Source: Actinomycetota bacterium
GTDB lineage: Bacteria > Actinomycetota > Actinomycetes > Actinomycetales > Microbacteriaceae
Direction: 5' to 3'
NCBI GenBank assembly: GCA_040389685.1
Contig: JAZJZS010000013.1
Coordinates: forward strand, 107-64,106
Length of the DNA stretch: 64,000 bases
Every line of letters begins with the position of its first letter. Positions within the stretch are counted from its first letter, which is position 1. Positions 1 to 40,454 of this stretch are shown piece by piece. Position numbers and translations under genes: made by a program. The notes below the pieces were generated by a model. It did not search any database. It had not been told where the DNA came from and saw nothing but the letters and a program-made list of their open reading frames with translations.

Positions 1-432
<432 letters not shown>

Positions 433-593: not shown

Positions 594-712
594 GTTTCGG
601 CGGCCATAGCGAGAGGGAAACGCCCGGTCACATTCCGAACCCGGAAGCTAAGACTCTCTGCGCCGATGGTACTGCAAGGGGGACCTTGTGGGAGAGTAGG
701 ACACCGCCGGAC
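594..712 (+). rRNA. rrf: 5S rRNA
   Basis: GTTTCGGCGGCCATAGC...CCCGGTCACATTCCGAACCCGGAAGCTAAG...GCCGATGGTACTG...GGGAGAGTAGGACACCGCCGGAC; ends pair. Confidence 0.96.
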
Positions 713-14797: not shown

Positions 14798-14820
14798 CTA
14801 GCGCCAGCCGGGGAGCCAGT
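14798..14820. repeat. Right copy of 23-bp direct repeat (functional pmt 3' end)
   Basis: See 9311-9333. Confidence 0.85.
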
Positions 14821-16438: not shown

Positions 16439-16478
16439 AGGTGCAATGGTAACGATGGTTCGCTGCAAGGATGGGCAG

Positions 16479-26437: not shown

Positions 26438-26475
26438 GACAGTCCGAGACGGCGGGGTCGACGGCGGCCGCGACA

Positions 26476-26508
26476 AATGGCCCGCTGCGCGAGGCGCAGC
26501 GGGCCATT
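26476..26508. terminator. Hairpin between convergent ispE and lipoprotein gene (likely bidirectional terminator)
   Basis: AATGGCCCGCTGCGC-GAG-GCGCAGCGGGCCATT, 15-bp perfect stem. Confidence 0.75.
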
Positions 26509-26544
26509 GGTCAGGCATTCGACATAGTCGGCCCGTGAGGGAGA

Positions 26545-27219
26545 CTACTTGGCGATCACCGTGATGGTGGCAACACCGACGAGCAGCTGCGACTTCACCG
26601 CATCCGTCTTGAAGGTCTTGTTCAGGAGGCCCGCAGCGTCAGCGGAGATGTGAACCGTGGTGCCGGTGAGGATGGCGTTGTTGCCGTCCGTCTGGAGCGG
26701 CTTGAGGGTTCCGCCGTAGAGGTTGAAGAGCACGACCTGGGTCGCGGCGGAGGTGCCGTTGACCGAGACGTCGCCGTAAAGGAGGGACTTGCCCGGGTCG
26801 ATGGTGAAGTTGGTCAGCTCGACCTTGGTGTCGCCGGCGGTGAGGGAGAAGCCGGATCCCTCGTGCTTGATCGTGCCCTGGACATACGGACGCATCTTCT
26901 TGGCCGGGTCGTAGTAGTCCACGTTTCCGCCGGTGATCGGGAAGTGCAGGCTGCCGTCGGTGAGTGTCGCGGTTCCGACGGTGCCCGGGGTGAGTCCGAG
27001 CGAGGTGAGGGCCGCGGCGAAGCCACCGTCGAGCAGAACGGCGGTGTCGACACCGGTGAGGCTCGGGATGGAGGCGAGGGGCTTCTGCACGGCGGGAGCC
27101 GAAGAGGACTTGGTGCCGGTCGACGATCCGGTGGTGGAGGTGCCCGAGCACGCGGCGAGGCCGGTGATGAGGAGTCCGGCGGTGATGATCCCGACTGTTG
27201 CCTTCTGGAATTTGCGCAT
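26545..27219 (-). CDS. Secreted lipoprotein with Ser/Thr-rich linker and beta-rich (possibly HtaA-like) domain
   Basis: Lipobox LAAC; SGTSTTGSSTGTKSSS; FPITGG..Y...GTIKHEGSG..L..G...VELTNFTID. Confidence 0.8.
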   Translation of the reverse strand: MRKFQKATVGIITAGLLITGLAACSGTSTTGSSTGTKSSSAPAVQKPLASIPSLTGVDTAVLLDGGFAAALTSLGLTPGTVGTATLTDGSLHFPITGGNVDYYDPAKKMRPYVQGTIKHEGSGFSLTAGDTKVELTNFTIDPGKSLLYGDVSVNGTSAATQVVLFNLYGGTLKPLQTDGNNAILTGTTVHISADAAGLLNKTFKTDAVKSQLLVGVATITVIAK

Positions 27220-27274
27220 GGTGTGATCCTTAGGTTTGCGCCTGCCCTTGGTGACAAGCGGTTCTGGATAGTGG

Positions 27275-27301
27275 TTCGGCTCCCCTCGCCAAAGGGTTTG
27301 G
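27275..27301 (-). promoter_or_regulatory. Candidate SigK-like ECF promoter of the lipoprotein gene
   Basis: Minus strand reads CCAAACC-N15-CCGAA, resembling the mycobacterial SigK consensus CCATCC-N15-CCGAA as recalled. Confidence 0.45.
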
Positions 27302-27355
27302 AATTGCTTCGTCCTGTTACCGTTCCGTTATCGTTGCCAGCGAACACCCAGCGAA

Positions 27356-28771
27356 TCAGGCGCGCGGCACCCCGCGCAACAGGGCGATCGGATGCCGCAG
27401 GCGCGCGCGTCCCGCGGGTCCGGTGCGGTGCAGTGCCATCGCCACGATCACGACGATCGCTATCGTGATCGCGATCCGGGAGGCGACCTGGTTCGGGGTG
27501 AGCAGCCGCACGGTGAGGGCCAGGGGCACGGCGAACCACTCCCACCGCCCGCTCAGCGCGATGAACGGCACCAGCAGGAGGGCGTACCAGGGATAGCGGG
27601 GGGAGACGATGAGGAGTGTGGTGCCGATCATGACGAGCTGCCCGAGCCACGGGAATTGCGGATTGGTCTTCCACCACACCAGGACCGCGGTGAGCAGCAG
27701 CACCACCGCGGCGACCGCGAGGGATGCCGTTTTCGGCACGAACAGGGTGAGCAGGGTGAAGCGGCTGCCGTTGTTGTAGCCCTCTTCGGAGAGGTAGCCG
27801 GGCAGGTAGCCGAGCACCGCGATGCCGGTCGTGACCACGTAGGGGATGTAGAGCACGGCGAAGGTGACCATCGCGGCCACGACCAGCTTCCATGGTTGGC
27901 GGCGCAGCAGAGCGGGCGCCGCGATCACCGGGATCAGCTTCACGGCGATCGCGGCACCGAGCGCGATGCCCCCGCGGATTCGGATTCCGCGGGCGACCAG
28001 CAGGGTCGCGACAAGGGCGAGCAGGGCGCCGAGCAGGTCGAGGTGCGAGTTGGTGATCCCCTCGGTCGCGACGATCGGGCTCCACCCCCACAGGGCCGCC
28101 AAGCGTGGGTCCAGGTTGCGTCGGCGGAGCGCCACGATGAGCATCGTCGTGACGGCGAGACTCATCAGCAGGCCGGCGAGTTGCAGGGGCCAGTACTCGG
28201 CCGAGGGCCCGGTGACGAATCGCACCGCGGCGAAGAACATCTCGGCCGCGGCCGGGTAGATGGTCGGCACCTTCGGCCGGTTCAGGGCGGTGCAGAGCGG
28301 TACGCCGCTCGGTACCGATGCGGTCATGGAGGTGCGGGGCTCGACGCACCGGTAGCCGCCGTCCGCCGTCGCAATCGGAGCGGGGAACAACCAGTCGGGA
28401 CGAAGGGCGCCGACCGCATCATCCACGGGCACATAGCGATACGGCGAGATCCCGGCGTTCTGCACGATGCCGTCCCAGGCGTACCGTGCCGAGTCGGTGC
28501 TCGTGTTGGGCGGGCCGGCCATCGCGGCGCCGCCGAGAAGCGCCGAACCGATGAGCACGATCGCGATCGCCGGCCGCCCCGATACCCGCCGGAGGGCGAG
28601 GATCGCCAGGGTGAAAAGCACCCACAGGCCCGCCGTGAACGCGACAAGTGGGACAGGCTCTGCCCGATCGAAGTAGCCGAGCCCGGCGACCGAATAGGCA
28701 GTCGCCCCCGCCAGAGCGCCGAGGGCCAGCGAGGTGAGCACTATCGGCAGTGGAGGCGGCGCGGTTTTCAT
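27356..28771 (-). CDS. GT-C fold polyprenol-P-sugar-dependent glycosyltransferase (GT87/DUF2029-like; MtxT-like)
   Basis: STDSARYAWDGIVQNAGISPYRY, TIYPAAAEMFF, WGWSP, NSHLD, AVKLIP, YPWY; ~11 TM. Confidence 0.85.
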   Translation of the reverse strand: MKTAPPPLPIVLTSLALGALAGATAYSVAGLGYFDRAEPVPLVAFTAGLWVLFTLAILALRRVSGRPAIAIVLIGSALLGGAAMAGPPNTSTDSARYAWDGIVQNAGISPYRYVPVDDAVGALRPDWLFPAPIATADGGYRCVEPRTSMTASVPSGVPLCTALNRPKVPTIYPAAAEMFFAAVRFVTGPSAEYWPLQLAGLLMSLAVTTMLIVALRRRNLDPRLAALWGWSPIVATEGITNSHLDLLGALLALVATLLVARGIRIRGGIALGAAIAVKLIPVIAAPALLRRQPWKLVVAAMVTFAVLYIPYVVTTGIAVLGYLPGYLSEEGYNNGSRFTLLTLFVPKTASLAVAAVVLLLTAVLVWWKTNPQFPWLGQLVMIGTTLLIVSPRYPWYALLLVPFIALSGRWEWFAVPLALTVRLLTPNQVASRIAITIAIVVIVAMALHRTGPAGRARLRHPIALLRGVPRA

Positions 28772-28886
28772 TGCTCCCCATCCTGTCGGACCCTTCTCCG
28801 CCGTCCGACCGGACCGATCGGTGCCGTTCGGGAACCGTAAGATTTTTGCCAGCGTGGTGGGAGCATCCGGATGCTCAACTGTACCC

Positions 28887-30191
28887 ATGCGCCGACTACT
28901 GCTTGACCTGAGACGTGTGCTTGCTGCGCCGTCGAGGAATCCGCGCATGGCGGTCGTGCTCGGGCGCCTGCTCGGAATCGCCTTCGTCATCACGTTCGCG
29001 ACCGGGCTGTACAGCCGCTTTCTGCAGTCCCCGCTGCCCTGGATGGTGTTCCCCACCGACCCGCGGTGGCTCTACCAGCTGAGCCAGGGCATTCACATCA
29101 CCGTCGGCATCGCCTGTTTCCCGCTGCTCCTCGGCAAGCTCTACGTGGTGTTCCCCCAGCTGTTCCAGACGCCGCCGATCAAGAATTTCGTCGGCTTTCT
29201 CGAGCGGGCGTCGATCGCCGTCTTCGTCTCGGCGTCGCTGGTGCAGATCATGACCGGGCTGCTCAACACCTACCAGTGGTACGTGTTCCCGTTTCCCTTC
29301 AAGCAGACTCATTTCGCCCTCTCCTTCGTGATCATCGGTTCACTCGCCATTCACATCGCGGTCAAACTTCCGGTGATCGCGCGCTACTGGCGACGGTCCC
29401 GCAGTTTCGACGCCGAGGGCAACCTCGTGCTCGATGAGCGGGACCGGCCGCTCACTCTCGCGCAGGTCGCCGCGGAACTCGCCGCGACGACCCCGGAACC
29501 GGTCGGGCCGATCTCGCGCCGTGTCGACGGTGTCACCGGCCGGGTGTTCGACTGGATCGACAGTGCTCCGGCGCGCGTCGACACCCCGAAGCAGGCGCGG
29601 GTCTCCCGGCGGGGATTCGTCGCGACGATCGGGGTGGCCACCGCGGCGGTCGTCGCCCTGACGGCCGGCCAGTCCTTCCGGTTCCTCGACGCGATCAACC
29701 TCTTCGCTCCGCGCAAGAGCTTTCTCGGTCCGAACGAGCTGCCGATCAACCGCACCGCCCGGGCTGCCCAGGTGACGGATGCCGACACCGGCGCGGACTG
29801 GACGCTCACCGTGCGTCGCGGCGATGTCGTCAACACCTACAGCCGGGCCGACCTCGAAACGATGCCGCTGCGGACGGTCGACCTGCCGATCGCCTGCGTG
29901 GAGGGGTGGAGCCAGCTGGCGACCTGGCGGGGGGTGCGCCTGCGCGACCTTCTTGATGCCGTCGGGGCGCAACCGGACGAGGACCTGCGGCTGACCAGCC
30001 TGGAGAAATCGGGTCGTTTTCGGGTGACGGAGATGGGCTACGAGTTCGCTCAGGACGATCTGACCCTGGTGGCGCTCGAGCTCAACGGCGCACCGTTGGA
30101 CATCGACCATGGCTTCCCGGCCCGCATGATCGCTCCGGCTCGACCCGGGGTGCTCCAAACCAAGTGGCTCTCCAGCCTGGAAGTGATCTGA
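28887..30191 (+). CDS. Membrane-anchored molybdopterin oxidoreductase (MsrP/YedY-like) with N-terminal cytochrome b-like TM domain
   Basis: Mo-ligand motif IACVEGWS, HGFPARMIAP...KWL; TM His residues (GIHI, QTHF, AIHI); internal SRRGFV Tat motif; no C-terminal Ig domain. Confidence 0.85.
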   Translation: MRRLLLDLRRVLAAPSRNPRMAVVLGRLLGIAFVITFATGLYSRFLQSPLPWMVFPTDPRWLYQLSQGIHITVGIACFPLLLGKLYVVFPQLFQTPPIKNFVGFLERASIAVFVSASLVQIMTGLLNTYQWYVFPFPFKQTHFALSFVIIGSLAIHIAVKLPVIARYWRRSRSFDAEGNLVLDERDRPLTLAQVAAELAATTPEPVGPISRRVDGVTGRVFDWIDSAPARVDTPKQARVSRRGFVATIGVATAAVVALTAGQSFRFLDAINLFAPRKSFLGPNELPINRTARAAQVTDADTGADWTLTVRRGDVVNTYSRADLETMPLRTVDLPIACVEGWSQLATWRGVRLRDLLDAVGAQPDEDLRLTSLEKSGRFRVTEMGYEFAQDDLTLVALELNGAPLDIDHGFPARMIAPARPGVLQTKWLSSLEVI

Positions 30192-30655
30192 TGCGAGTCG
30201 ACTCGATGAAGGCCTGGCGCACCGCGCTCGTCGTGCTCGGGGTGCTGTTGCTTGCGCTCGGCGCGTACGTAATGGTCGACACGGTGAAGCCGGTGAAGAT
30301 CGCCGGCATCGCCCTGTGGTTCCTGCTCGCCCTGATCGTGCACGACGGGATCATAGCCTTCTTCACTTTCGGCGTGTCGTTCCTGCTCCGCAAGGCCGGG
30401 CGGCGGATGCCGATCGCCGTGCTCGCGATCGTGCAGGCCGCCCTCGTGGTGAGTTCGGTGTTCGCGATCATCGTGATCCCGGCGGTCTACAAGAAGTCGA
30501 TCGGCACGAAGAACCCCACGGTGCTGCCGCTCGACTACGGTCCGTCGCTCGTGATCCTCTGGGGCGTCATCGCTGTGCTGACGGCTCTCGCGGTGGTCGG
30601 CTACAGCGCCTTCGCGAGGCGGCAGAAGGACCGGCCGCCCGTCTCCCAGGCCTGA
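30191..30655 (+). CDS. Four-TM hypothetical membrane protein coupled to the molybdoenzyme gene
   Basis: TGATG overlap with upstream stop; HDG motif in TM2. Confidence 0.75.
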   Translation: MRVDSMKAWRTALVVLGVLLLALGAYVMVDTVKPVKIAGIALWFLLALIVHDGIIAFFTFGVSFLLRKAGRRMPIAVLAIVQAALVVSSVFAIIVIPAVYKKSIGTKNPTVLPLDYGPSLVILWGVIAVLTALAVVGYSAFARRQKDRPPVSQA

Positions 30656-31278
30656 TCGAGGCGCAGCCCGAGCCGCCCGGCGCGGCGCACGAGGGCGGTT
30701 TCCCCGATCTCGGCCCACGGGAACGCGTCGCTCTGATGTCCGCGGATGTCGACGACTGTGCCGTCGTACATGTGGTCGCGCAGGGGCTCGGCGTGCACTT
30801 CGACGATGATTACGCCGTCGGACGCGATCAGTTGGGCACACCGCTCGAGCAATGCCGTCGGATCTCCACCGATTCCGATGTTGCCGTCCACCAGCAGGGC
30901 GGCCCCCCAGAGTCCCTCCCGGGGGAGCCGCTCGAAGACCGAACGGTTGAGCACCATCAACCCCGACTCGCGGGCGATCTCCACGGCGGTCTCCGACACG
31001 TCGATGCCGAGAGCCGTCAGCCCCCGATGCATGGCCGCACGCACCATCCGTCCCGGCCCGCAGCCGATGTCGAGCACGGCACCGCGGATGCCGTCGAGAA
31101 GGCCGAGGTCCGCAGCATCCGCCGCATCATTCCAGCGGGAGACGTCCATGGCGCGGGACGGGGTGAGCGAGTCGGAGTCGACGTCGCGCAGGTAGAGAAC
31201 CTGGTCGTCGCGGCGAAGCGCGCGCGCGTACGGCTCTGCCCCTCCCGACCCGAAGGTCGCGAAGGCCGGGTCGCTCAT
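30601..31278 (-). CDS. Class I SAM-dependent methyltransferase
   Basis: VLDIGCGPGR, GIDVS, LLVDGNIGIGGDP. Confidence 0.85.
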   Translation of the reverse strand: MSDPAFATFGSGGAEPYARALRRDDQVLYLRDVDSDSLTPSRAMDVSRWNDAADAADLGLLDGIRGAVLDIGCGPGRMVRAAMHRGLTALGIDVSETAVEIARESGLMVLNRSVFERLPREGLWGAALLVDGNIGIGGDPTALLERCAQLIASDGVIIVEVHAEPLRDHMYDGTVVDIRGHQSDAFPWAEIGETALVRRAGRLGLRLDQAWETGGRSFCRLAKAL

Positions 31279-31904
31279 CGGTTCGCCCCCGCAGGGAACG
31301 TCCCGAGAGTGCGGGCGAATTCGGTGTGCGGGGCGAGGCCAGCGACCAGGCGGGCATCGTCGATGGTGTCGACGTCGACGAGTTCTGGAAGCAGCTTCAC
31401 CCGCAGTCCAGCCTCGGTGAGTCGATCGAGCTGCCGTTTCCCGGTGTCATGCCGGGACATCGGGATGCCGCGGATCAGCGAGCCGTCGGGCTCCGCCATC
31501 GCGATCATCCAGTAGCCGCCGTCGTTGGCGAAACCGAGCGCGGCGTCGAAATCGGTTGGCCACACGCCGAAGAGCGACGCGAGCGTCGCGGCTTCGAGCT
31601 GGGGTGTATCCATTCCGACCAGCACGGTCGGCCCAACACACTCGTCGAATATCGCTCCGAGCCGGCTGTCCAGCTCCCCGTTCACTTGGTGTCTCACGTC
31701 GTATGGTTCGGAGCCGAGCGGCAAAAGGTTGCCATCGAAGAGCAGAATTCGCCGGGACGCTTCCAGGGTGCTCACCGCACGGAAGGTGTCGGAGAGGCTA
31801 GCGGAGGCCAGCTCCGCTGCCTGTTCGAGGCTGAGTGGGGGGTGCAGTCGTGTCTTCACTCGCCCGGGGACGCATTCCTTGGCGATGATGACGAGGGTGG
31901 TCAC
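31275..31904 (-). CDS. DUF2064/TIGR04282-like protein (CofC/MobA-like nucleotidyltransferase fold)
   Basis: IIAKECVPGRVKTRL, QVNGELDSRL, LVGMDTPQL, GFANDGGYW, LVDVDTIDD; GTGA overlap with GT2 stop. Confidence 0.85.
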   Translation of the reverse strand: MTTLVIIAKECVPGRVKTRLHPPLSLEQAAELASASLSDTFRAVSTLEASRRILLFDGNLLPLGSEPYDVRHQVNGELDSRLGAIFDECVGPTVLVGMDTPQLEAATLASLFGVWPTDFDAALGFANDGGYWMIAMAEPDGSLIRGIPMSRHDTGKRQLDRLTEAGLRVKLLPELVDVDTIDDARLVAGLAPHTEFARTLGTFPAGANR

Positions 31905-32569
31905 CGGGTTTTCGCTTTCAGCAGTCGCGACATGTCGGCGATGGCCACGACCGTGCCGCGGATCGTGCCGGTGACCTTGGAACGACCGATTCGGGGGGAG
32001 TATGGCGTCGGCAGTTCGACGATCGTCCACCCCGCGTTCGACGCCTTCAGCACCATTTCCAGCGGATAGCCGCTGCGACGGTCGACGAGGTCGAGGGCCA
32101 GCAACGATTCCCGGCGGGCCGCGCGCATCGGGCCGAGGTCGTGCAACGGCACCCCGGTGGCGCGCCGCATGAGCGCCGCGAGCACGAAGTTCGCGAATCG
32201 AGCGTGCAGCGGCCAGGCTCCCCGGCTCGTCGGTCGCCGTCGACCGAGCGCAAGATCCGTGGCGCCGCTGTGCACGAGGGCGATGAGCGGAGGAAGATCC
32301 CGCGGATCCATCGAGGCGTCGGCATCGCAGAACGCCACGATCGGGGCTGACGATGCCAGAAGTCCCGCATGGGCCGCCGATCCGAATCCCCGGCGGGATT
32401 CCCGCACGACGAGTGCTCCCGCCGCCTCGGCCACGGCGGCCGAATTGTCGGTCGAACCGTTGTCCACGACGATCCCCCGGTACCCCTCGGGCAGCCGCGC
32501 GAGCACCCAGGGGAGCGCACCCTCCTCGTTCAGACAGGGTAGAACGACATCGACGAGCGGGAGGGTCAC
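31901..32569 (-). CDS. GT2 polyprenol-phosphate sugar synthase (Dpm1/Ppm1-like; MtxS-like)
   Basis: VVLPCLNEE, VVDNGSTD, RRGFGSA, FCDADAS, DLGPMRA, RIGRSKVTG. Confidence 0.9.
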   Translation of the reverse strand: MTLPLVDVVLPCLNEEGALPWVLARLPEGYRGIVVDNGSTDNSAAVAEAAGALVVRESRRGFGSAAHAGLLASSAPIVAFCDADASMDPRDLPPLIALVHSGATDLALGRRRPTSRGAWPLHARFANFVLAALMRRATGVPLHDLGPMRAARRESLLALDLVDRRSGYPLEMVLKASNAGWTIVELPTPYSPRIGRSKVTGTIRGTVVAIADMSRLLKAKTR

Positions 32570-32692
32570 GCTTCTTACCCTAGGTTGCCGCGGATGCGGG
32601 TTTCGCCGCCCGCGGATTACGAATTGCTGACCGATCGCCCCGGCCGCCGCATCCGGGGCTGTTTTCCCGGGCGGTCGACCTATCCTGAACGG

Positions 32693-33472
32693 GTGAGCAC
32701 GTCACGCGCGACTGCGCCATCCGCACGCAGAGTCCCGGCCGCCGAAGAGGCCGGACCGTTCAGCGGCCCGGATCCGCTTCGTGACCGCCGCATCCTGGTG
32801 GTGGATGACGACGCCACCGTCTCCGAGGTCGTCTGCAGTTACCTGCGCTCGGCCGGCTTCATCGTCGAGAGCGCGTTCGACGGAATCAGCGCCGTCGAGA
32901 CGGCTGCGCGCATCCGCCCCGATCTCGTGGTGCTCGACCGCATGCTGCCCGGAATCGACGGGGTGGAGGTGTGTCGTCGCATCCGTGCCGAACGTCCCGT
33001 TCCGGTGATCATGCTCACGGCACTTCGGGAGGAAGAGGATCGTATCGACGGACTCGAGGCAGGTGCCGACGACTACCTCGCCAAGCCGTTCTCGCCGCGC
33101 GAACTCGTGCTGCGGGTGAAGTCCATCCTGCGTCGAAGCCTGCCCGAGTTTTCACCAGAGTCCGCGGTGGATGTGGGCGAGTTCCATCTCGACGTGGCGT
33201 CTCGCCAGGTGAGCCTGCGCGGAGAGCCGCTCGCGCTTACGATCCGCGAATTCGACCTGCTCGCCTTCCTGCTGAAGCATCCGCGCCAGGTTTTCGGCCG
33301 GGAAGAACTGTTGCGCGCGGTGTGGGGATGGGAGTTCGGCGACCTCTCCACCGTCACCGTGCACGTGCGGCGGCTGCGGGAAAAGGTCGAACGGGATGCC
33401 GCGCATCCCGCCCTGCTTGCCACGGTCTGGGGCGTCGGCTATCGATTCGACATACCGGCGGTCGGCTCATGA
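32693..33472 (+). CDS. OmpR-family response regulator
   Basis: ILVVDDD, VVLDRMLPG, MLTA, DYLAKPFSPREL, LTIREFDLL, TVTVHVRRLREK, GVGYRF. Confidence 0.95.
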   Translation: MSTSRATAPSARRVPAAEEAGPFSGPDPLRDRRILVVDDDATVSEVVCSYLRSAGFIVESAFDGISAVETAARIRPDLVVLDRMLPGIDGVEVCRRIRAERPVPVIMLTALREEEDRIDGLEAGADDYLAKPFSPRELVLRVKSILRRSLPEFSPESAVDVGEFHLDVASRQVSLRGEPLALTIREFDLLAFLLKHPRQVFGREELLRAVWGWEFGDLSTVTVHVRRLREKVERDAAHPALLATVWGVGYRFDIPAVGS

Positions 33473-34641
33473 GCCTGACCGACCTGCTCACCGTGTCGTT
33501 GATGGCGCTCGGATTCGCCGTGGTGGTCGGTGCCGTCTCGCTCGTGGTCCTTCGCTTCATGACCCGCAGTTCGCTGGTGTTGCAGTTCTGTGTCGTCGTG
33601 TTCGCGGCGGTGCTCTCGATCGCCGGGGGGATGTGGCTCGCCGCCTCGGTGATGTTCGTGACGCCCCAGGACCTGACTGTGCTACTTTCGGTGGCCGCGA
33701 TCGCCGGACTCGTCTCGTTGTCGCTCGCCGCCCTGCTCGGTCGCTCGCTCGTGCGAAACAGCCGCCAACTGATCGCGGCGACCCGGCGTATCGGCACCGA
33801 CCAGGCGATGACCGAGCCGGTGCGCCACTCGAGCAACGAGTTCGCGGCCGTCGCCCTCGAACTGACCGCAGCCAACCGTCGGCTCGCCGAATCGCGGGCG
33901 AGGGAGGCGCTGGCGGAGCATTCGCGACGCGAACTCGTGGCCTGGATCTCGCACGACCTGCGCACCCCGCTCGCCGGCATCCGCGCCATGGCCGAAGCCC
34001 TCGAAGACGGCATGGTCGACGAGCCGGAACGCTATTACACGAAGGTGCGCAGCCAGGTGGATCGGATGAGCGGCATGGTCGACGACCTCAACGAACTGTC
34101 GCGCATCCACTCCGGGTCGCTGCGCCTGTCGATGCAGAAGGTGTCGCTCTACGACCTGATCAGCGACGTGGTGGCCGAGCTCGGCCCGTTCGCCGAGTCC
34201 CGCTCCATCTCGCTCGTCGGCGACGGTGCACGGGAGTTGACGATCCTCGCCGACCCGAGGGAGCTCTCCCGGGTGGTCGGCAACCTCGTGATGAACTCGA
34301 TCCAGCATTCACCAGAGGGCAGCCCGATCACCGTCAGCGCCCGGCAGAGCGATGACGGGCTCGCGGTGATTTCGGTGATCGACGCGGCCGGCGGCATCCC
34401 GGAAAAAGATCTCGGCCGGGTTTTCGAGGCCGGTTGGCGGGCCAGCAACTCGCGCACTCCCGAAACGGCGACCGCCAGGTCCGGCGGCGCCGGGCTCGGG
34501 CTCGCGATCGTGCAGGGCATCGTGCAGGCTCACCGCGGCCGGGTCGTCGTGCAGAACGTGCCAGGCGGATGCCGCTTCGACGTGTTCCTCCCGCCGAGCC
34601 CGGTCGACGGCCCATCCGGCACGGTGGCGGTGACCGCATGA
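33469..34641 (+). CDS. Sensor histidine kinase (HAMP-HisKA-HATPase), no large extracytoplasmic domain
   Basis: WISHDLRTPL, NLVMNSIQHS, DAAGGI, GAGLGLAIVQGIV; ~3 N-terminal TMs. Confidence 0.95.
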   Translation: MSLTDLLTVSLMALGFAVVVGAVSLVVLRFMTRSSLVLQFCVVVFAAVLSIAGGMWLAASVMFVTPQDLTVLLSVAAIAGLVSLSLAALLGRSLVRNSRQLIAATRRIGTDQAMTEPVRHSSNEFAAVALELTAANRRLAESRAREALAEHSRRELVAWISHDLRTPLAGIRAMAEALEDGMVDEPERYYTKVRSQVDRMSGMVDDLNELSRIHSGSLRLSMQKVSLYDLISDVVAELGPFAESRSISLVGDGARELTILADPRELSRVVGNLVMNSIQHSPEGSPITVSARQSDDGLAVISVIDAAGGIPEKDLGRVFEAGWRASNSRTPETATARSGGAGLGLAIVQGIVQAHRGRVVVQNVPGGCRFDVFLPPSPVDGPSGTVAVTA

Positions 34642-36227
34642 GCGTCGACGCCCCGCGGCTGGCCGGACTCGGCGGGCGAGCCGTCACCGCCCTGGCGGCC
34701 GCCGCCGGGGTGGTTTCCGCCGCCGTCGTGCTCGGCACCGCAGAACTCGTCTCCCTCGTCGTCGGCCCGGCCGGGAGCCCGCTGTTCGCGGTCGGATCGC
34801 TCGTGATCGACCTCGCACCGGCCGGCGTCAAGGACTTCATGATCGCGGTCTTCGGCACCGGGGACAAGGCGGCGCTCCTCACGCTCATGGGCGTCCTCAT
34901 CGTCGTGGTCTCCGCCTCGGCCGGCGTGCTCGAATCTCGTCGACCGCCGTTCGGAGTGATCGTGATCGGCATCGGCGGTGCGGTCGCTCTCATCGCCGTC
35001 CTCACCCGCGCCGGGGCGACCGGCTTCACCGGGATCGCCACCATCGTCGGGACAGTCACCGGTGTCGTGGTGCTCCGCCTCGCGACCGAACGGCTCGGCC
35101 GCTGGCAGCGGGCCGCCGAGCGTCCCGGTGCGGGCGGCCCGGCCGCCGGGCCGCAGCTCGAGCGGCGACGCTTTCTCACCCTCGCGATCGTCGCGGGTGC
35201 GACATCCGTCGTCGTCGGCACCGGGGCGAGGATCCTCAACGCGAGTGCGAGCAAGGCCGCGGCCATCCGCACGAAGCTGACCCTGCCGAAGGCGGCGGTG
35301 CCCGCGGACCCGGTACCGGCCGGAGCCACCATCGATGTGCCGGGAATCTCCTCCTTCGTCACGTCGAACGCGGACTTCTACCGCATCGACACGGCCCTCC
35401 AGGTGCCGTCGATCGATCCGGCCACCTGGATGCTGAAGATCACCGGCCTGGTGGCTAACGAGGTCTCGCTCAGTTTCGCCGACCTGCTCGCCAAGCCGCT
35501 TGAGGAGCATCTCGCGACCCTCACCTGTGTGTCGAATGATGTGGGCGGCGACCTCATCGGCAACGCGCTCTGGCTCGGCTACCCGATTCGCGAGCTGCTC
35601 GCCGAGGCGGCGCCGAAGGCGGGAGCCGACATGGTGCTCTCCACCAGTGTGGACGGCTTCACCGCCGGCACGCCGCTGTCGGTGCTGCAGGACGCGGGAA
35701 CCAACGCCATGCTCGCGGTGGGTATGAACGGTGAGGCCTTGCCGCTCGAACACGGGTTCCCGGTGCGGATGGTCGTGCCTGGACTCTACGGATACGTCTC
35801 GGCGACCAAATGGGTGGTTGAGCTCAAGGTGACGAAGTTCTCCGAAGACCAGGGGTACTGGACTCCGCGCGGTTGGGACGCGAAGGGCCCGATCAAGCTC
35901 GCCTCCCGCATCGACACGCCCCTCACCGGGTCGTCCGTTTCGGCCGGCACCGTCACCATCGCTGGGGTGGCCTGGGAGCAGCACGTCGGGGTGAAGGCCG
36001 TGGAGGTACGGGTGGATGACGGCCCGTGGGTGGAGGCGACCCTCGCCGATTCGATCTCCGCCGACACCTGGCGCCAGTGGGTGTACCGCTGGTCGGCCGG
36101 GAAGGGCTCGCACCGCATCCAGGTGCGCGCGACGGATGCGAATGGGGCGACCCAGGGGCAGGCCTACCGGCCACCGGCTCCCAATGGCGCCGAGGGCTGG
36201 CACGAGATCCAGGTCGACGTCAACTGA
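34638..36227 (+). CDS. Membrane-anchored molybdopterin oxidoreductase, sulfite oxidase/SorA-like with C-terminal Ig dimerisation domain
   Basis: FYRIDTAL, TLTCVSN, HGFPVRMVVPGLYGYVSATKWV, GVAW...VEVRVD...WRQW; ~5 TMs then ERRRFL Tat motif. Confidence 0.9.
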   Translation: MSVDAPRLAGLGGRAVTALAAAAGVVSAAVVLGTAELVSLVVGPAGSPLFAVGSLVIDLAPAGVKDFMIAVFGTGDKAALLTLMGVLIVVVSASAGVLESRRPPFGVIVIGIGGAVALIAVLTRAGATGFTGIATIVGTVTGVVVLRLATERLGRWQRAAERPGAGGPAAGPQLERRRFLTLAIVAGATSVVVGTGARILNASASKAAAIRTKLTLPKAAVPADPVPAGATIDVPGISSFVTSNADFYRIDTALQVPSIDPATWMLKITGLVANEVSLSFADLLAKPLEEHLATLTCVSNDVGGDLIGNALWLGYPIRELLAEAAPKAGADMVLSTSVDGFTAGTPLSVLQDAGTNAMLAVGMNGEALPLEHGFPVRMVVPGLYGYVSATKWVVELKVTKFSEDQGYWTPRGWDAKGPIKLASRIDTPLTGSSVSAGTVTIAGVAWEQHVGVKAVEVRVDDGPWVEATLADSISADTWRQWVYRWSAGKGSHRIQVRATDANGATQGQAYRPPAPNGAEGWHEIQVDVN

Positions 36228-36233
36228 CGTTCA

Positions 36234-37300
<1,067 letters not shown>

Positions 37301-37304
<4 letters not shown>

Positions 37305-38185
37305 ATCGCCTCCCTCGCCCCGTTCACCGGTTTCGCCAGCAGCGGTCTGGCCTGCACCGGCCTGGCCAGTACCGCCTCGACCTCGGCCGGGTCTATGCTC
37401 TGCCGAGGACTGTACCCCTCCGGCAACGCGCGGATGATCGCCTCGATCGCCGCGACGATGCGCGGCTGGGCTTCGGCGAGGCGACGCATCACGAGGGCGT
37501 GGCTCACGGCATCCGGGTCCGCTTCGCCGGGGCGGGGAGCCAGTCCCGCATCGCTGTCGGTCACGAACGAGAGGTTGACCGTGTCGATGTTGAGCTCGGC
37601 GGCGAGCGGCACCTCGGGGTACATCGTCATGTTGACGATGTGTGCACCCGCCGCGGCGAACCACAGCGACTCGGCGCGGGTGGAAAATCGTGGACCCTGG
37701 ATCACCACGACCGTGCCGGAGTTCTTGACTGGCTCCCCGGCCAGTGCCCGTGCGGCAATGTCGTGCAGCTCCGGCGGGAAGGGATCGGCCGCGGCGAGAT
37801 GCTGCACGGAACCCTGGTCGAAGAAGGTATCAGGGCGACCGTTAGTGCGGTCGATGAATTGGTCCGTGAGCACGAGGGTGCCCGGCGGGTAGTCGGCGGT
37901 CACGCCGCCCACCGCGGAGGAGGAGAGGATGACGCGCACCCCGAGGCTCGCGAGCGCCCAGATGTTCGCGCGGTAGTTGATGAGGTGCGGTGCCACGGAG
38001 TGATCGACGCCGTGCCGGGTGAGGAACGCCGTGCGTCGTCCGCCGAGTTCGCCGAGTGTGACCTCGGTAGGTCCGTACGGGGTGTCGATGCGGCGCTTCT
38101 CGCTCTGGGCCGGATCGAACAGGGAGTACAGGCCGGAGCCCCCGATGACGGCTACGGACGCTTCGGGGACGGAGGGGGAAGTCAT
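37301..38185 (-). CDS. mtnP: 5'-methylthioadenosine phosphorylase
   Basis: AVIGGSG, LTRHG..H, NYRANIWAL, DQFIDRT, QGPRFSTRAES, NMT..PE..LA.EL, VTDSD (MTAP DxD). Confidence 0.88.
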
Positions 38186-38603
38186 CCCCCCATTGTTCCA
38201 GCGTTCTAAGTGCATGCGTTAGGAGTGCGCAACCGGTGCGCGGCGGATTCCTACGGCAGGGTGCTCGTTCCGGGTCGGTTTCGATCGGCTGGGGCCGGTC
38301 CGCGGTCCCCTACGTCGCACCCGCGACTTCGGGCCGTGCCCTTTCGTGCCGTCTCGCCGGTCCTGCCTCTTCAGACCGTTTCTCTTCGGACTGTCTTGCC
38401 GCACCGTTCCGATTCGACTCGACTCGGGGGTAACGCGCGACTCGATTCCGACGAAGGGCGGGCCCAGACGATCGGATTCGATCGACAAGGAAAGGCAAAT
38501 CAGGGTCCACCTTTTCGCCGAGTGACGCGACCTGAGTCACCCCCACATTGCGCCCAGAGCGAGACCGAACCGCGTTCGACTCCCCACCGGCTACAGTCGT
38601 TCA

Positions 38604-40454
38604 GTGGCACATCTCCTGGGCGCCGAGTCCCTTCACCTCGAATATCCCACCCGGGTCATCTTCGACAAGCTCACGATCGGTCTCGACGAAGGCCACCGGA
38701 TCGGCGTCGTCGGCCGCAACGGCGATGGCAAGTCGACCCTGCTCCGGCTGCTCAGCGGGCGCATCGAACCCGATTCCGGCCGGGTGACGCGCCGCAACGG
38801 CGTGACGCTCGGGATGCTGGACCAGGGCGACCTGCTTCCGGAAGACCTGGTCGTCAAGGACGCCATCGTCGGAGACAGGGACGAGTACCAATGGGCGGGG
38901 GATGCCCGCATCCGCGATGTCATCGACGGACTGTTGCTCGACGTGCCGTGGGAAGCCACCATCGGGGAACTGAGTGGTGGCCAGCGCCGCCGCGTCGCCC
39001 TCGCCAAACTTCTCGTCGGCGATTGGGACGTCATCTTCCTCGACGAGCCAACGAACCACCTCGACGTCGAGGGCATCGCCTGGCTCGCCGGACATCTCAA
39101 CAAACGCTGGTCGCCGAACCAGGGTGGGCTCATCGTCGTGACCCACGACCGGTGGTTCCTCGACGAGGTCTCGACCGACACGTGGGAGGTGCACGATCAG
39201 ATCATCGAGCCCTTCGAGGGAGGCTACGCCGCCTACATCCTGCAGCGCGTCGAGCGCGACGAACTGGCCGCGACCATGGAGTCGAAGCGCCAGAACCTCG
39301 CCCGCAAGGAGCTGGCCTGGCTGCGCCGCGGCGCCCCGGCCCGCAGCACCAAGCCGAAGTTCCGGATGGATGCCGCGTACGCGCTGATCTCCAACGAACC
39401 GCCGCCCCGCGACACCGTTGCCCTCAGCCAACTCGCCACTGCCCGCCTCGGCAAGGACGTCGTCGACCTCCTGGACGTCGGCGTCACCTATGGCGGAACG
39501 ACGGATGCCGACGGCAACACCACCGGCGGCGCCGAGATCCTGAAAGACATCGAGTGGCGGGTCGCTCCGGGTGAGCGCACCGGCATTCTCGGGGTGAACG
39601 GTGCGGGAAAGTCCACGCTGCTCGGCCTCATCGCCGGCACGCTGCTTCCGACCAGCGGCCGGGTGAAGCGCGGCAAGACCATCCGCGTCGCCATCCTGAG
39701 CCAGCAACTCGGAGAGCTCGCGGACATCCTCGACGACCGGGTGATGGATGTCATCGCGCGCCAGAAGAGCTCCTACGTCACCGGCGGCAAGGAACTCACC
39801 CCCGGCCAGCTGCTCGAACGCATGGGATTCATGTCCGCGCAGCTGAGCACCAAAGTCAAGGACCTGTCCGGTGGGCAGCGTCGCCGCCTGCAGCTGCTGC
39901 TCATCCTGCTGGGAGAGCCGAACGTGCTGATCCTCGATGAGCCGACCAACGATCTCGACACTGACATCCTCGCCGCCATCGAAGACCTGCTCGACTCCTG
40001 GCCGGGCACGCTGCTCGTGGTCAGTCACGACCGTTACCTGCTCGAACGCGTTACCGACAACCAGTACGCGATCCTCGACAAGCGGATGCGGCACCTGCCC
40101 GGCGGCGTCGACCAGTACCTGCAGTTGCGGGCACAGCAGACCACCAAGGGCCAGACCGTCACCGAGTCGCACAAGTCCTCGACCGGTTCGGCACCGGCGG
40201 GCGTGAACTCGAAGGGCCGCACGAAGCTCACCGGTGCCGAACTGCGCAACGCGCAGAAGGAACTCGGATCGGTGAGCCGCAAGCTCGAGAAGGTCACCAC
40301 CCAGATTTCGGCGATCCACGATCGTTTCGCGAGTCACGACCAGGGTGACTTCACCGGCCTAGCCGCGCTGCAGGGGGAGCTCAAGCCCCTGGAGGATTCG
40401 ATGGCGGAGCTCGAGCTGCGCTGGCTCGAGCTCAGCGAGGTGCTCGAAGCGTAG
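38604..40454 (+). CDS. ABC-F family ATP-binding protein (Uup-like)
   Basis: Two ABC domains (GRNGDGKST, LSGGQRRR, LDEPTNHLD; GVNGAGKST, LDEPTNDLD), C-terminal coiled coil, no TM. Confidence 0.93.
   Translation: MAHLLGAESLHLEYPTRVIFDKLTIGLDEGHRIGVVGRNGDGKSTLLRLLSGRIEPDSGRVTRRNGVTLGMLDQGDLLPEDLVVKDAIVGDRDEYQWAGDARIRDVIDGLLLDVPWEATIGELSGGQRRRVALAKLLVGDWDVIFLDEPTNHLDVEGIAWLAGHLNKRWSPNQGGLIVVTHDRWFLDEVSTDTWEVHDQIIEPFEGGYAAYILQRVERDELAATMESKRQNLARKELAWLRRGAPARSTKPKFRMDAAYALISNEPPPRDTVALSQLATARLGKDVVDLLDVGVTYGGTTDADGNTTGGAEILKDIEWRVAPGERTGILGVNGAGKSTLLGLIAGTLLPTSGRVKRGKTIRVAILSQQLGELADILDDRVMDVIARQKSSYVTGGKELTPGQLLERMGFMSAQLSTKVKDLSGGQRRRLQLLLILLGEPNVLILDEPTNDLDTDILAAIEDLLDSWPGTLLVVSHDRYLLERVTDNQYAILDKRMRHLPGGVDQYLQLRAQQTTKGQTVTESHKSSTGSAPAGVNSKGRTKLTGAELRNAQKELGSVSRKLEKVTTQISAIHDRFASHDQGDFTGLAALQGELKPLEDSMAELELRWLELSEVLEA

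Follow-up and report, generated by a model that had tools for sequence, protein, structure and literature searches.

The 64,000-nucleotide stretch of DNA analysed here, hereafter the window, belongs to a member of the Microbacteriaceae and not to a mycobacterium. It carries two genes for molybdoenzymes, Mo1 and Mo2, interleaved with glycosylation genes coding for a GT-C, a SAM methyltransferase, a DUF2064 protein, a GT2, an epimerase and an MTAP paralogue (Table 1). An earlier note on this DNA had placed two molybdoenzymes among glycosylation genes; domain searches of both proteins (CVEGW in Mo1, CVSND in Mo2, each of the sulfite-oxidase fold) and of their neighbours bear this out. The start codons of the GT87 GT-C and of the SDR epimerase were selected in this analysis. 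GT87 GT-C and Mo1 are transcribed divergently with a 115-bp spacer between them, the sTM start is translationally coupled to the Mo1 stop (TGATG), and the 3' end of the methyltransferase gene overlaps the convergent sTM gene by 55 nt. Mo2 lies immediately downstream of the two-component genes, as previously described, because its ATG overlaps the stop codon of the histidine kinase gene (ATGA, 34638-34641).

Table 1. Genes of the cassette and its surroundings, in window coordinates.
Feature	Coordinates	Strand	Evidence
Lipoprotein, 224 aa, LAAC lipobox and Ser/Thr-rich linker	26545..27219	-	translation
GT-C glycosyltransferase, GT87, 471 aa	27356..28771	-	Pfam GT87
Mo1, polytopic haem b-MoCo oxidoreductase, 434 aa	28887..30191 (ATG to stop)	+	Pfam Oxidored_molyb 6.6e-22
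sTM, small 4-TM protein, 154 aa	30191..30655	+	sequence; HD(G/A) and NPxxLPxDY motifs
Class I SAM-dependent methyltransferase-like, 225 aa	30601..31278	-	Pfam and NCBIfam; LDIGCGPG
DUF2064 / TIGR04282 (CofC-like) protein	31275..31904	-	NCBIfam TIGR04282
GT2 polyprenyl-phosphate sugar synthase (MtxS-like role)	31901..32569	-	Pfam Glycos_transf_2 4.4e-20
OmpR-type response regulator	32693..33472	+	Pfam
Histidine kinase	33469..34641	+	Pfam HisKA and HATPase_c
Mo2, accessory molybdoenzyme, 529 aa	34638..36227	+	Pfam Oxidored_molyb 9.6e-42
SDR-type NAD-dependent sugar epimerase (GalE-like)	36234..37304	-	Pfam and NCBIfam
MTA phosphorylase (MTAP) paralogue	37301..38185	-	NCBIfam MTAP models

Mo1 is a protein of the Sco3746/Rv0218 type, with five TM helices, haem-ligand histidines, an internal twin-arginine motif and a small MoCo domain. 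Its N-terminal part gives a sub-threshold Pfam match to cytochrome b561, and residues ~19-168 comprise four TM helices with the haem-ligand histidines H70, H142 and H156. A further haem-ligand position, 44, is Arg in this genome and His in relatives, and the four histidines of the family are placed as in dihaem cytochromes b. The twin-arginine motif SRRGF (29604-29618) precedes the fifth TM helix, and the sulfite-oxidase-fold domain contains the Mo-ligand Cys within CVEGW (29895-29909). This Cys and the signature HG[FY]PxR...GVLQTKW are invariant across orders. The likeness to the Sco3746 type, drawn from the published architecture and not from direct alignment with Sco3746 or Rv0218, comprises the number of TM helices (five), the twin-arginine motif immediately ahead of the last one, the conserved histidines in the helices and the C-terminal MoCo domain (PMC5449189). 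Tooke et al. (2017) demonstrated dual Sec/Tat insertion for this polytopic haem-MoCo architecture, with Tat export of Sco3746 established experimentally; their study was confined to membrane insertion and assigned these proteins no function or gene context (PMC5449189). Rv0218 of Mycobacterium tuberculosis is another member (PMC5800017). Mo1 and Mo2 are both predicted to be exported on the basis of a twin-arginine motif ahead of the last TM helix. The label MsrP-like given to Mo1 in the earlier note is right as to Cys motif and fold but not as to family: with the MsrP model of NCBIfam (cut-off 207) Mo1 reaches 30.9 bits, it falls far under every curated family cut-off, and by overall sequence and fold it is no nearer to YedY than to sulfite oxidases.

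The sTM protein, whose two motifs are conserved, matched no known family in profile searches. Its gene always follows the Mo gene and was found in 69 of the 80 loci of the best metagenome relatives of Mo1, most of the loci without it ending near the Mo gene. The lipoprotein gene adjoins GT-C in most Microbacteriaceae loci (tblastn, most of L004-L083); the protein has no Pfam or NCBIfam family and was not found in cassettes outside the Microbacteriaceae. Its membership in the cassette is uncertain, and it is possibly an acceptor or accessory protein.

The N-terminal TM helices of Mo2 contain no His or Cys, so this protein lacks a haem site. Its motif ERRRF (35160-35174) precedes a SorA-like MoCo domain bearing CVSND (35526-35540) and a C-terminal Ig-like Big_7 domain (Pfam). 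The nearest relatives are the SorA/SorT sulfite dehydrogenases, which share the order of MoCo and Ig-like domains, SorA aligning over both (1e-24). However, Mo2 reaches only 117 bits against a model cut-off of 600, and its Cys motif CVSND comes with a 7-residue deletion that takes away the Arg segment of SorA (CSGNSR). Unlike SorA/SorT, it is held in the membrane by an N-terminal anchor, which includes an internal twin-arginine motif, and no gene for a cytochrome c partner occurs near it. Of 69 Microbacteriaceae loci, 21 have Mo2, and most other lineages lack it. In Curtobacterium and Frigoribacterium faeni no cassette gene lies within 10 kb of the Mo2 orthologues (63% identity), that of Curtobacterium sitting in the same conserved gnd-prs-glmU chromosomal neighbourhood. 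Although an orthologue recurs beside the epimerase on a Mycobacteroides abscessus plasmid, fused in operon with it, the idea that Mo2 is a constant partner of the cassette has to be abandoned; Mo2 is best described as an optional second molybdoenzyme, accessory and predicted to be exported.

The remaining genes suggest a pathway for a sugar donor. The DUF2064 protein is presumed to be a sugar-1-phosphate nucleotidyltransferase; it scores 113 bits against TIGR04282 (cut-off 134), the homologue on the M. abscessus plasmid passes that cut-off with 137 bits, and Pfam DUF2064 is found in homologous loci. Dolichyl-phosphate hexose transferases are the best NCBIfam matches of the GT2. The GT87 GT-C, for which a genome scan returned 314 relatives, is presumed to be an extracytoplasmic transferase using a polyprenyl-phosphate sugar donor, and the SDR epimerase (66 of 69 Microbacteriaceae loci) is presumed to perform a ribo-to-xylo epimerisation. 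The MTAP paralogue (54 of 69) scores 266 and 240 bits against NCBIfam MTAP models, slightly under the equivalog cut-offs.

This inventory (MTA phosphorylase, nucleotidyltransferase-like protein, SDR epimerase, GT2 polyprenyl-phosphate sugar synthase, extracytoplasmic GT-C) matches, in its kinds of enzyme, that of MTX capping in M. tuberculosis (MtxS Rv0539, MtxT Rv0541c; Angala et al. 2017), a pathway summarised in PMC11127046 and PMC8780516. The actinobacterial cassettes differ from the M. tuberculosis cluster in their additional methyltransferase, Mo1, sTM and, often, two-component system. The GT-C of the window belongs to GT87, while Mycobacteroides and Rhodococcus cassettes have another GT-C of 449 aa, the same length as Rv0541c. 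Unlike in M. tuberculosis, LAM has to our knowledge not been described in the host, and we know of no thio-sugar reported from these cassette-carrying organisms. The cassette had been called an MTX cassette outright; the enzymes fit that description, but for a GT87-bearing cassette in a Microbacteriaceae host the name overstates an identity that we infer from the enzyme inventory.

Linkage of Mo1 to the cassette, named in the earlier note as the decisive test, proved strongly positive from both sides. Among 73 Microbacteriaceae species loci with enough upstream DNA, Mo1 and sTM adjoin GT87 in all 73; the methyltransferase, DUF2064 and GT2 genes are also present (69/69), while the chromosomal surroundings of the cassette vary from genus to genus. 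Mo1 and sTM likewise adjoin GT-C in Terrabacter, Kineococcus, Longispora, Micropruina, Kitasatospora, Streptomyces, Rhodococcus and the M. abscessus plasmid. In other orders the module recurs with its genes rearranged: on a single strand as cyt b-Mo-sTM-GT2-DUF2064-MT-GT87-RR-HK in Terrabacter and as Epi-Mo1-sTM-GT87 in Longispora, and also in Kineococcus, Micropruina and a 'Mycobacteriales' MAG. When the best 80 metagenome relatives of the Mo gene were graded by flank length, cassette genes accompanied all 18 loci flanked on each side by 3 kb or more and 28 of the 30 flanked by 1.5 kb or more; in 17 loci among these 80 relatives, cyt b-Mo is co-directional and directly behind the methyltransferase or DUF2064 gene. 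The cassette also travels on plasmids: a compact version flanked by repeated genes and IS elements on an Arthrobacter conjugative plasmid, a single nine-gene operon opening with a hypothetical gene and Mo1 in Rhodococcus, the order GT2-DUF2064-MT-Mo1-sTM in M. abscessus, and further copies in Kitasatospora and Streptomyces. The linkage is kept despite replacement of GT87 by the unrelated 449-aa GT-C in Mycobacteroides, Rhodococcus and Streptomyces, and in several lineages where two genes encode the haem and the Mo domain, the Mo protein of Kineococcus, for example, having 202 aa. In a few exceptional loci Mo1-sTM stands with GT-C alone or with nothing nearby. Across Actinobacteria, and on plasmids as well as chromosomes, Mo1 and sTM thus belong to the core of the cassette. 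An Acidobacteria operon (DUF2064-GT87-Epi-GT2) has no Mo gene, which fits a maintenance rather than a biosynthetic role of the Mo module.

From these gene contents, architectures, motifs and linkages we infer a substrate and a direction of electron flow for Mo1. The cassette would make a 5-methylthio-pentofuranose (MTX-like) sugar and attach it to an envelope glycan. The MTAP paralogue would convert 5'-methylthioadenosine (MTA) to methylthioribose-1-phosphate, the DUF2064 protein would form the nucleotide sugar, the SDR epimerase would epimerise it, GT2 would place the sugar on polyprenyl phosphate and GT-C would move it to the glycan outside the membrane. Mo1 and sTM would constitute a redox module of the cassette, in which the four-helix haem b domain draws electrons from menaquinol and the Tat-exported MoCo domain, at the outer face, strips the oxygen atom from the methylsulfinyl (sulfoxide) sugar. 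The target may be the sugar while still on its lipid carrier, the sugar of the completed glycan, or both, so that the thioether would be kept or restored. Menaquinone, which Actinobacteria use, has a potential of ~-74 mV, against some +160 mV for sulfoxide/thioether couples, so that electrons can pass only towards sulfoxide reduction, to which an outward-facing, menaquinol-driven haem-MoCo enzyme is suited both thermodynamically and topologically. Because it is a fixed cassette member across Actinobacteria, Mo1 is the best candidate so far for re-reduction of the sulfoxide of this surface sugar outside the cell. We give this reading of an MTX-like cassette with an extracellular sulfoxide-reducing module an even chance.

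The methyltransferase, present in all actinobacterial cassettes examined, co-varies with Mo1 and sTM, all three being absent from the Acidobacteria minimal operon, yet it has no role in the sulfoxide-reduction scheme. Mo1 might instead perform an obligatory tailoring step together with this methyltransferase, the final sugar being a modified MTX derivative whose modification is unmade or untransferred without Mo1. The contiguous and co-directional MT-cyt b-Mo-sTM arrangement of many loci and the existence of GT87-Mo1-sTM trios without donor genes nearby agree with such a step. We regard it as unlikely, as no chemically obvious reaction requires a cytoplasmic methyltransferase plus an outward-facing quinol-linked MoCo enzyme, and the five-gene MTX cluster of M. 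tuberculosis functions without methyltransferase or Mo enzyme.

The resemblance to E. coli MsrPQ (YedYZ) raises another prospect, that Mo1-sTM is a fused MsrPQ analogue repairing Met-O in envelope proteins generally, tied to the cassette by a common envelope/oxidative-stress regulon. Both systems have a Tat-exported (in Mo1, predicted) sulfite-oxidase-fold MoCo unit, and the Mo-domain profile matches MsrP with an hhalign probability of 96%, CVE[A/G]WS included. In each, a haem b protein in the membrane supplies respiratory-chain electrons (in Mo1, as proposed) and an OmpR-type two-component system is encoded alongside (hprRS in E. coli), and the separate Mo and haem genes of MsrP/MsrQ recall several Mo1 lineages. 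Identity to MsrP is, however, only ~27-29% over ~140 residues, the Mo domain measures ~170 aa in Mo1 versus ~290 aa, and the four-His cytochrome b561/FdnI-like bundle is unrelated to the ferric-reductase-type MsrQ (hhalign probability 0.8%); unlike MsrPQ, Mo1 has an additional small membrane protein and is embedded in a glycosylation cassette. Rv0218, the Mo1-like protein of the sole proven MTX producer, M. tuberculosis, lies by gene numbers far from the MTX genes (PMC5800017), in agreement with general repair. Even so, a housekeeping enzyme is not expected to travel with sugar genes on plasmids, nor to remain in one operon with them across four or more gene orders and an exchange of the GT-C family, and nearly every well-flanked Mo-side relative lies in a cassette; general repair seems rather improbable.

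We see a slight chance that the Mo1 C-terminal domain is a PruR-type pterin-binding sensor rather than a catalyst and that both Mo proteins are unrelated passengers, serving for instance sulfite detoxification. Foldseek does match the Mo1 domain to PruR pterin-binding proteins (E ~3e-6, TM 0.75 on target), and Mo2 has its SorA kinship and its orthologues away from the cassette. Against this stand the invariant Mo-ligand Cys and signature, the dedicated dihaem-type partner of Mo1 and the loss, in both proteins, of the Arg after the Cys of sulfite oxidases. Least credible is another 5-deoxy-5-X-pentose (e.g., an arseno- or seleno-sugar) whose oxide Mo1 reduces: TIGR04282, the best NCBIfam model for the DUF2064 protein, is named 'arsenosugar biosynthesis' and a related NC10 locus combines GT87, GT2 and methyltransferase with two radical SAM genes, but the actinobacterial cassettes have neither a radical SAM (ArsS-like) gene nor an ArsM match, and the MTAP paralogue matches MTA phosphorylase models strongly and is so annotated on three plasmids (Arthrobacter, Rhodococcus, Kitasatospora).

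Reduction of the sugar sulfoxide, our preferred reading, has precedents. The LAM of M. tuberculosis carries MTX as well as its sulfoxide (PMC8531672). According to papers citing Stalford et al. 2009 (PMC6400530, PMC10503756), MsrA reduces the methylsulfinyl sugar of LAM, the same sulfoxide-to-thioether chemistry that we propose and a counterpart, on a glycan, of the Met/Msr cycle. Turnbull and Stalford 2012 proposed an antioxidant role for MTX. The renewable thioether imagined in the earlier note is thus plausible for Mo1 on comparative genomic grounds, but it does not extend to Mo2 as a regular partner, and the remark that no description of such a cycle was known does not hold. The new element is a candidate enzyme that the cassette itself encodes and that would act outside the cytoplasm. 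MsrA, a thiol enzyme, resides in the cytoplasm, away from the glycan; Mo1 would work on the outside, with quinol electrons, and its gene is linked to those of the sugar pathway.

The two-component system, often linked to the cassette, probably controls its expression. Its histidine kinase has N-terminal helices embedded in the membrane with no sizeable outside domain (intramembrane-sensing type) and shares 23% identity with E. coli HprS, over the kinase core only. The response regulator is frequent but not universal (48 of 69 Microbacteriaceae loci) and also occurs in cassettes of Terrabacter, Kineococcus, Micropruina, Kitasatospora, the M. abscessus plasmid and locus L173.

The window has the composition of a high-GC actinobacterial chromosome segment (~65-69% GC), and the nearest relatives of its proteins belong to the Microbacteriaceae genera Lacisediminihabitans, Glaciihabitans and Frigoribacterium. 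Its conserved housekeeping backbone comprises 23S/5S rRNA, a protein O-mannosyltransferase, metG, tatD, ksgA, ispE, an ABC-F protein with a tRNA, glmU, prs, gnd, rplY, pth and mfd, and a block of 12 genes sits between ispE and the ABC-F gene. The positions, motifs and gene order given in an earlier note for the two molybdoenzymes of this block, Mo1 (CVEGW type) and Mo2 (CVSND type), proved correct, as did the placement of Mo2 directly downstream of the two-component genes. Scanning 26400-38700 for promoters and terminators gave no sites, and neither the small membrane protein encoded after Mo1 (sTM) nor the lipoprotein matched a Pfam or NCBIfam family. Oxidant sensing by the histidine kinase is not claimed, its similarity to HprS being confined to the generic kinase core.

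Features of the 12-gene block and context genes (window positions)
Feature	Position	Strand	Remarks
23S rRNA 3' end and 5S rRNA	1-712		Ordinary context genes
Thioredox_DsbH-type DUF255 protein, 651 aa	7359-9314	+	Ordinary context gene
Lipoprotein, 224 aa	26545-27219	-	
GT87 GT-C	27356-28771	-	
Mo1	28887-30191	+	ATG at 28887; CVEGW 29895-29909
sTM, small 4-TM protein	30191-30655	+	
SAM methyltransferase	30601-31278	-	
DUF2064/TIGR04282	31275-31904	-	
GT2	31901-32569	-	
Response regulator	32693-33472	+	
Histidine kinase	33469-34641	+	
Mo2	34638-36227	+	CVSND 35526-35540; start overlaps kinase stop
SDR epimerase	36234-37304	-	
MTA phosphorylase paralogue	37301-38185	-	

Scanning genomes at the species level with the GT87 sequence returned 314 relatives, the best 80 of which were all from Microbacteriaceae, and the other cassette genes were counted at these Microbacteriaceae loci by tblastn with the cassette proteins. 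Mo1 and sTM lie upstream of the GT87 gene at every locus with at least 2.2 kb of upstream sequence (73/73). Where at least 9 kb was available upstream, the methyltransferase, DUF2064 and GT2 genes were found at 69 of 69 loci, the epimerase gene at 66, the MTA phosphorylase (MTAP) paralogue at 54, some loci being cut by the flank limit, the two-component system at 48 and Mo2 at 21, about a third. The earlier note had placed both molybdoenzymes in the sugar cassette; co-occurrence with the sugar genes is strong for Mo1, and Mo2 is no constant partner. The block adjoins ispE in some genera and has unrelated surroundings in others, such as Leifsonia aquatica and Cryobacterium. GT87 relatives from other orders (45-50% identity) are found with the same module in other gene orders, on one strand as cyt b-Mo-sTM-GT2-DUF2064-methyltransferase-GT87-response regulator-kinase in Terrabacter and as epimerase-Mo1-sTM-GT87 in Longispora; Kineococcus, Micropruina and a 'Mycobacteriales' MAG also carry the module. 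The haem and Mo parts of Mo1 are encoded by separate overlapping genes in Terrabacter, Kineococcus and Micropruina, where the Mo subunit has its own Tat signal; the Kineococcus Mo subunit is 202 aa long. Outside the Actinobacteria, an Acidobacteria MAG bears a minimal four-gene operon, DUF2064-GT87-epimerase-GT2 (L092 4446-8495), and genes for Mo enzymes, MTAP, methyltransferases and regulators are all missing from its surroundings.

The same linkage emerged when the search started from the molybdoenzyme. Scanning metagenomes with a Mo-domain alignment of five lineages yielded 587 relatives, of which the best 80, 46-57% identical to the Kineococcus subunit, were examined. Cassette genes were present at all 18 of these best-80 loci having at least 3 kb on both sides and at 28 of the 30 having at least 1.5 kb. 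The Microbacteriaceae-type order was seen in 40 loci of this set, while 17 have cyt b, Mo and sTM genes running co-directionally right behind the methyltransferase or DUF2064 gene, with a gap of at most 108 bp in 16. Three exceptional loci have GT87 alone beside Mo1-sTM within 8-10 kb, and three further Mo1-sTM loci have nothing recognisable for 7-9 kb downstream, with less than 2.3 kb upstream. At the gene ends themselves, sTM and the convergent methyltransferase gene of the window overlap by 55 nt at their 3' ends (30601-30655), and gene calls in Leifsonia aquatica (L001) and Lacisediminihabitans (L003) show the same overlap of ~50 nt. On a Marisediminicola contig (L002 1-4587), the GT87-Mo1 pair is directly adjoined by a ModE-like HTH/TOBE regulator and a molybdate ABC transporter (binding protein, permease, ATPase).

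Searching PLSDB by tblastn with Mo1 gave 8 records. On the conjugative plasmid of Arthrobacter sp. U41 (L175), Mo1-sTM adjoins epimerase-MTAP-GT87-methyltransferase-DUF2064-GT2, and the cassette is bracketed by two copies of the hypothetical protein WP_069952941.1 (9154-9840 and 17503-18189) next to IS3 transposases. A Rhodococcus plasmid has a single co-directional operon (hypothetical-Mo1-sTM-methyltransferase-GT-C-MTAP-epimerase-GT2-DUF2064), and plasmid 1 of Mycobacteroides abscessus subsp. bolletii (L174) encodes the two-component pair and GT2-DUF2064-methyltransferase-Mo1-sTM followed by a 449-aa GT-C on the opposite strand, this copy being flanked by an integrase and IS3. A Kitasatospora plasmid (L178) combines the Mo1-sTM cassette with an extra split Mo/cytochrome b pair, and Streptomyces plasmid relatives of Mo1 (34-37% identity) also occur in cassette contexts. 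The cassette looks horizontally mobile. The extra Kitasatospora pair (L178 6942-8199) consists of a molybdopterin oxidoreductase of ~217 aa and a 'cytochrome b/b6 domain' protein encoded separately; cassettes with two Mo systems recur in three lineages, being seen in the window, in Kitasatospora and on the M. abscessus plasmid. Redox genes abound around the M. abscessus cassette: between its two parts (L174 12862-16129) are encoded two redoxin-domain proteins and a MerR-type regulator responsive to heavy metals, and downstream of Mo2-epimerase a sigma factor, a cupredoxin and a Rieske protein.

In Mycobacteroides, Rhodococcus and Streptomyces, GT87 is replaced by a membrane protein of 449-453 aa (L174 11470-12816, L177 12406-13767 and L180 12627-13847), annotated as hypothetical and with a weak PMT_2 match. 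The Mycobacteroides and Rhodococcus versions are 58% identical, the protein is unrelated to the window GT87 (hhalign probability 0.1%), and no fewer than 13 metagenome loci also encode it. This replacement is probably an MtxT-type transferase. The GT87 searches (50%-representative, cluster look-ups and profile) uncovered many actinobacterial, NC10 and Acidobacteria relatives, and Mycobacterium was absent from the 30 named GT87 clusters and from the named matches of 120 profile hits, likely because Mycobacteriales cassettes use the different 449-aa GT-C. That Mo1-sTM keeps to the sugar-donor genes across this exchange speaks for the sugar as its target, over any particular transferase or acceptor.

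As to the nature of this sugar, the MTAP, nucleotidyltransferase-like, SDR epimerase, GT2 and GT-C functions are encoded together, all five with domain-level matches, and this set is conserved as a unit. They match the published route to 5-methylthio-xylofuranose (MTX), which starts from 5'-methylthioadenosine and proceeds through a polyprenyl-phosphate donor to a GT-C acting outside the membrane (PMC11127046; PMC8780516). Whether the MTX modification exists beyond lipoarabinomannan (LAM) assembly has been stated to be unclear (PMC11127046). On domain content, the MTAP paralogue is the strongest pointer to a methylthio sugar. Details of the MTX pathway were reportedly described by Angala in 2017. 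In M. tuberculosis, Rv0539 (210 aa) and Rv0540 (220 aa) lie on the plus strand and Rv0541c (449 aa) on the minus strand, which mirrors the GT2 (218 aa), DUF2064 (220 aa) and opposite-strand 449-aa GT-C genes of the M. abscessus plasmid except for methyltransferase-Mo1-sTM. An arsenosugar product, suggested by the name of TIGR04282, was rejected in the absence of radical SAM and ArsM genes. An NC10 metagenome contig (L091 5846-12993) encodes a methyltransferase, a GT2, two radical SAM proteins (one SPASM), a DoxD-like protein, GT87 and a large GT2, and has no Mo gene at this locus; together with the 'arsenosugar' name, it points tentatively to a broader family of glycosylation systems for 5-deoxy-5-X-pentoses.

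Mo1 and Mo2 have the same order of parts, with N-terminal TM helices, a twin-arginine motif (SRRGF in Mo1, ERRRF in Mo2), a last helix and a molybdenum cofactor (MoCo) domain; since their Mo domains share just 32% identity over 139 residues, they are distant paralogues. The MoCo domain of Mo1 has the sulfite-oxidase fold (PF00174, 6.6e-22) and is small (~170 residues). Its alignment to E. coli MsrP covers CVEGWS/CVEAWS, placing the Mo-ligand Cys in a CVEAW-type motif, and profile comparison gave an hhalign probability of 96% over 139 columns, CVE[A/G]WS included; Foldseek matched YedY at E ~5e-8. Yet Mo1 scores 30.9 bits against the MsrP equivalog model (NF003767, cut-off 207), on which Mo2 reaches 57.7 bits, and also falls far under the cut-offs of the SoxC (36 bits) and SorA (27 bits) models. 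YedY ranks under plant and animal sulfite oxidases in the PDB profile search, and by this search and Foldseek Mo1 is equally distant from YedY, SorA, SorT, SoxC and plant/animal sulfite oxidases; Foldseek with the Mo1 model did not separate YedY from the sulfite oxidases and found no match for the membrane domain. The haem-domain profile gave an hhalign probability of 0.8% against E. coli MsrQ and nothing against YodB, with a sub-threshold match to PF01292. Because of these scores, this equidistance and a haem domain unlike MsrQ, Mo1 is outside the MsrP family. The MsrP/YedY-like label of the earlier note consequently survives for the fold and the CVE[A/G]W motif and fails at the MsrP model cut-off and the MsrQ partner.

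An AF2 model built from 86 relatives (pLDDT 81.5; an earlier model from 15 sequences, at pLDDT 61, was too poor) places five helices in Mo1, at residues 19-47, 60-93, 101-129, 138-167 and 234-262. SRRGF (residues 240-244) directly precedes the fifth helix and is invariant in the 86 relatives. Helix residues H70, H142 and H156 are invariant and H44 nearly so (six lineages), making them putative haem ligands; H142 and H156 lie 14 residues apart on one helix, as in FdnI-type dihaem cytochromes b. Position 44, one of the four putative ligands, is His in 14/14 aligned relatives and in >90% of the 86. Codon 44 of the window gene (29016-29018) is CGC (Arg), one base away from CAC (His); R44 could be a genuine variant in which one haem ligand is lost, or an error in the sequence. 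Tooke et al. describe the Sco3746 family as having five TM helices, a twin-arginine motif conserved ahead of the fifth, and a MoCo domain at the C-terminus, with His residues predicted to hold two haems b (PMC5449189); Mo1 shares this arrangement, haem His included. Joint insertion by Sec and Tat was shown experimentally, and the authors liken Sco3746 to an MsrQ-MsrP fusion (PMC5449189). The layout of Mo1 would likewise work as a fused MsrPQ does, without membership of the MsrP family. M. tuberculosis Rv0218, described with the same layout as Mo1, is reported to be needed in vivo and to be associated with meningeal disease (PMC5800017).

Mo2 contains a PF00174 MoCo domain and, at its C-terminus, a Big_7 Ig-like domain of the dimerisation type, and both domains of SorA align to it (1e-24). 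The SorA-like label of the earlier note stands for these two domains and for SorA as closest match; it does not extend to the model cut-off (117 bits vs 600), to the active site, where a 7-residue deletion relative to SorA removes the Arg-containing segment after the Cys of CVSND, leaving C-x-G-N-x-R unmatched, or to a cytochrome c partner, the neighbouring genes encoding the kinase and the epimerase. Mo2 is without a haem site, because its membrane part holds no His or Cys. Its position in the Microbacteriaceae cassettes varies, since it follows the kinase gene in some, separates GT2 from the epimerase in others or lies towards ispE, and the orthologues of Curtobacterium pusillum and Frigoribacterium faeni (63% identity) have no cassette genes within 10 kb. 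The Curtobacterium orthologue lies in a gnd-prs-glmU neighbourhood as in the window, so the adjacency of Mo2 and cassette could be partly positional. Pure coincidence is nevertheless disfavoured, since the M. abscessus plasmid has a clear Mo2 orthologue (46% identity, covering 96% of the protein; E 4.5e-131) in an operon with the epimerase gene, whose start overlaps the Mo2 stop. Mo2 is an accessory to the cassette.

Actinobacteria use a low-potential menaquinone, and sulfoxide/thioether couples lie ~230 mV more positive; a quinol-linked MoCo enzyme would thus run in the reducing direction alone. Linkage and chemistry together are best explained if outward-facing Mo1 reduces the methylsulfinyl form of the sugar (MSX), and we rate the chances that Mo1 acts on the sugar sulfoxide as about even. 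Less probably, Mo1-sTM takes part in tailoring the sugar; the co-variation of the methyltransferase with Mo1-sTM, which a reductase scheme leaves unexplained, gives room for this reading. The Acidobacteria operon, which lacks Mo, fits maintenance rather than biosynthesis as the role of the Mo module. Returning to reduction by Mo1, we tentatively extend it to a dedicated and mobile 'thioether-sugar plus reductase' system, a broader proposal that we consider somewhat improbable as a whole: a surface methylthio-pentose would serve as sacrificial oxidant sink or redox signal, menaquinol-driven Mo1/sTM (Rv0218/Rv0219 in M. tuberculosis) would regenerate the sugar outside, and a second Mo enzyme (Mo2, or the extra Mo/cyt b pair of Kitasatospora) would take the other sulfoxide diastereomer. 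If true, glycan repair would thereby gain its first enzymatic cycle, and the Sco3746/Rv0218 family a function.

MsrA is cytoplasmic. Both MTX and its sulfoxide are present on LAM (PMC8531672), and the sulfoxide is reducible by MsrA according to Stalford 2009 as cited in PMC6400530 and PMC10503756. The earlier note's statement that no such cycle had been described is overtaken here, the antioxidant idea and MSX-to-MTX reduction having both been published; the Sco3746 architecture is likewise known, and MsrPQ is the mechanistic model. Among the papers searched, none mentions both lipoarabinomannan and MsrP and, judged by titles and abstracts, neither of the two papers combining methylthio, xylofuranose and 'molybd' addresses such a link. 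What seems to be new is that a haem-MoCo enzyme, together with a small membrane protein and a methyltransferase, is coupled tightly and as a mobile unit to an MTX-like pathway across the Actinobacteria. What the MTX cap does on LAM is a long-standing question, and MsrA, the only known reductase, sits on the side of the membrane away from it; the conserved linkage singles out one family of exported enzymes as the candidate for sulfoxide reduction, predicts widespread MTX-like sugars in Actinobacteria and gives a testable function to a large family including M. tuberculosis Rv0218. Split Mo subunits and compact plasmid operons are convenient assay material.

The lipoprotein at the edge of the block has a LAAC lipobox followed by a Ser/Thr-rich stretch, SGTSTTGSSTGTKSSS, a linker of the type O-mannosylated by actinobacterial Pmt, and a Pmt gene lies 10 kb off (14798-17260, minus strand). 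By analogy with MTX on mannose caps, one might speculate that this lipoprotein is an acceptor of the thio-sugar. Finally, window positions 28700-31300 occur mostly in sequencing runs from people, and the organism may be one that commonly contaminates, or accompanies, libraries of human origin.
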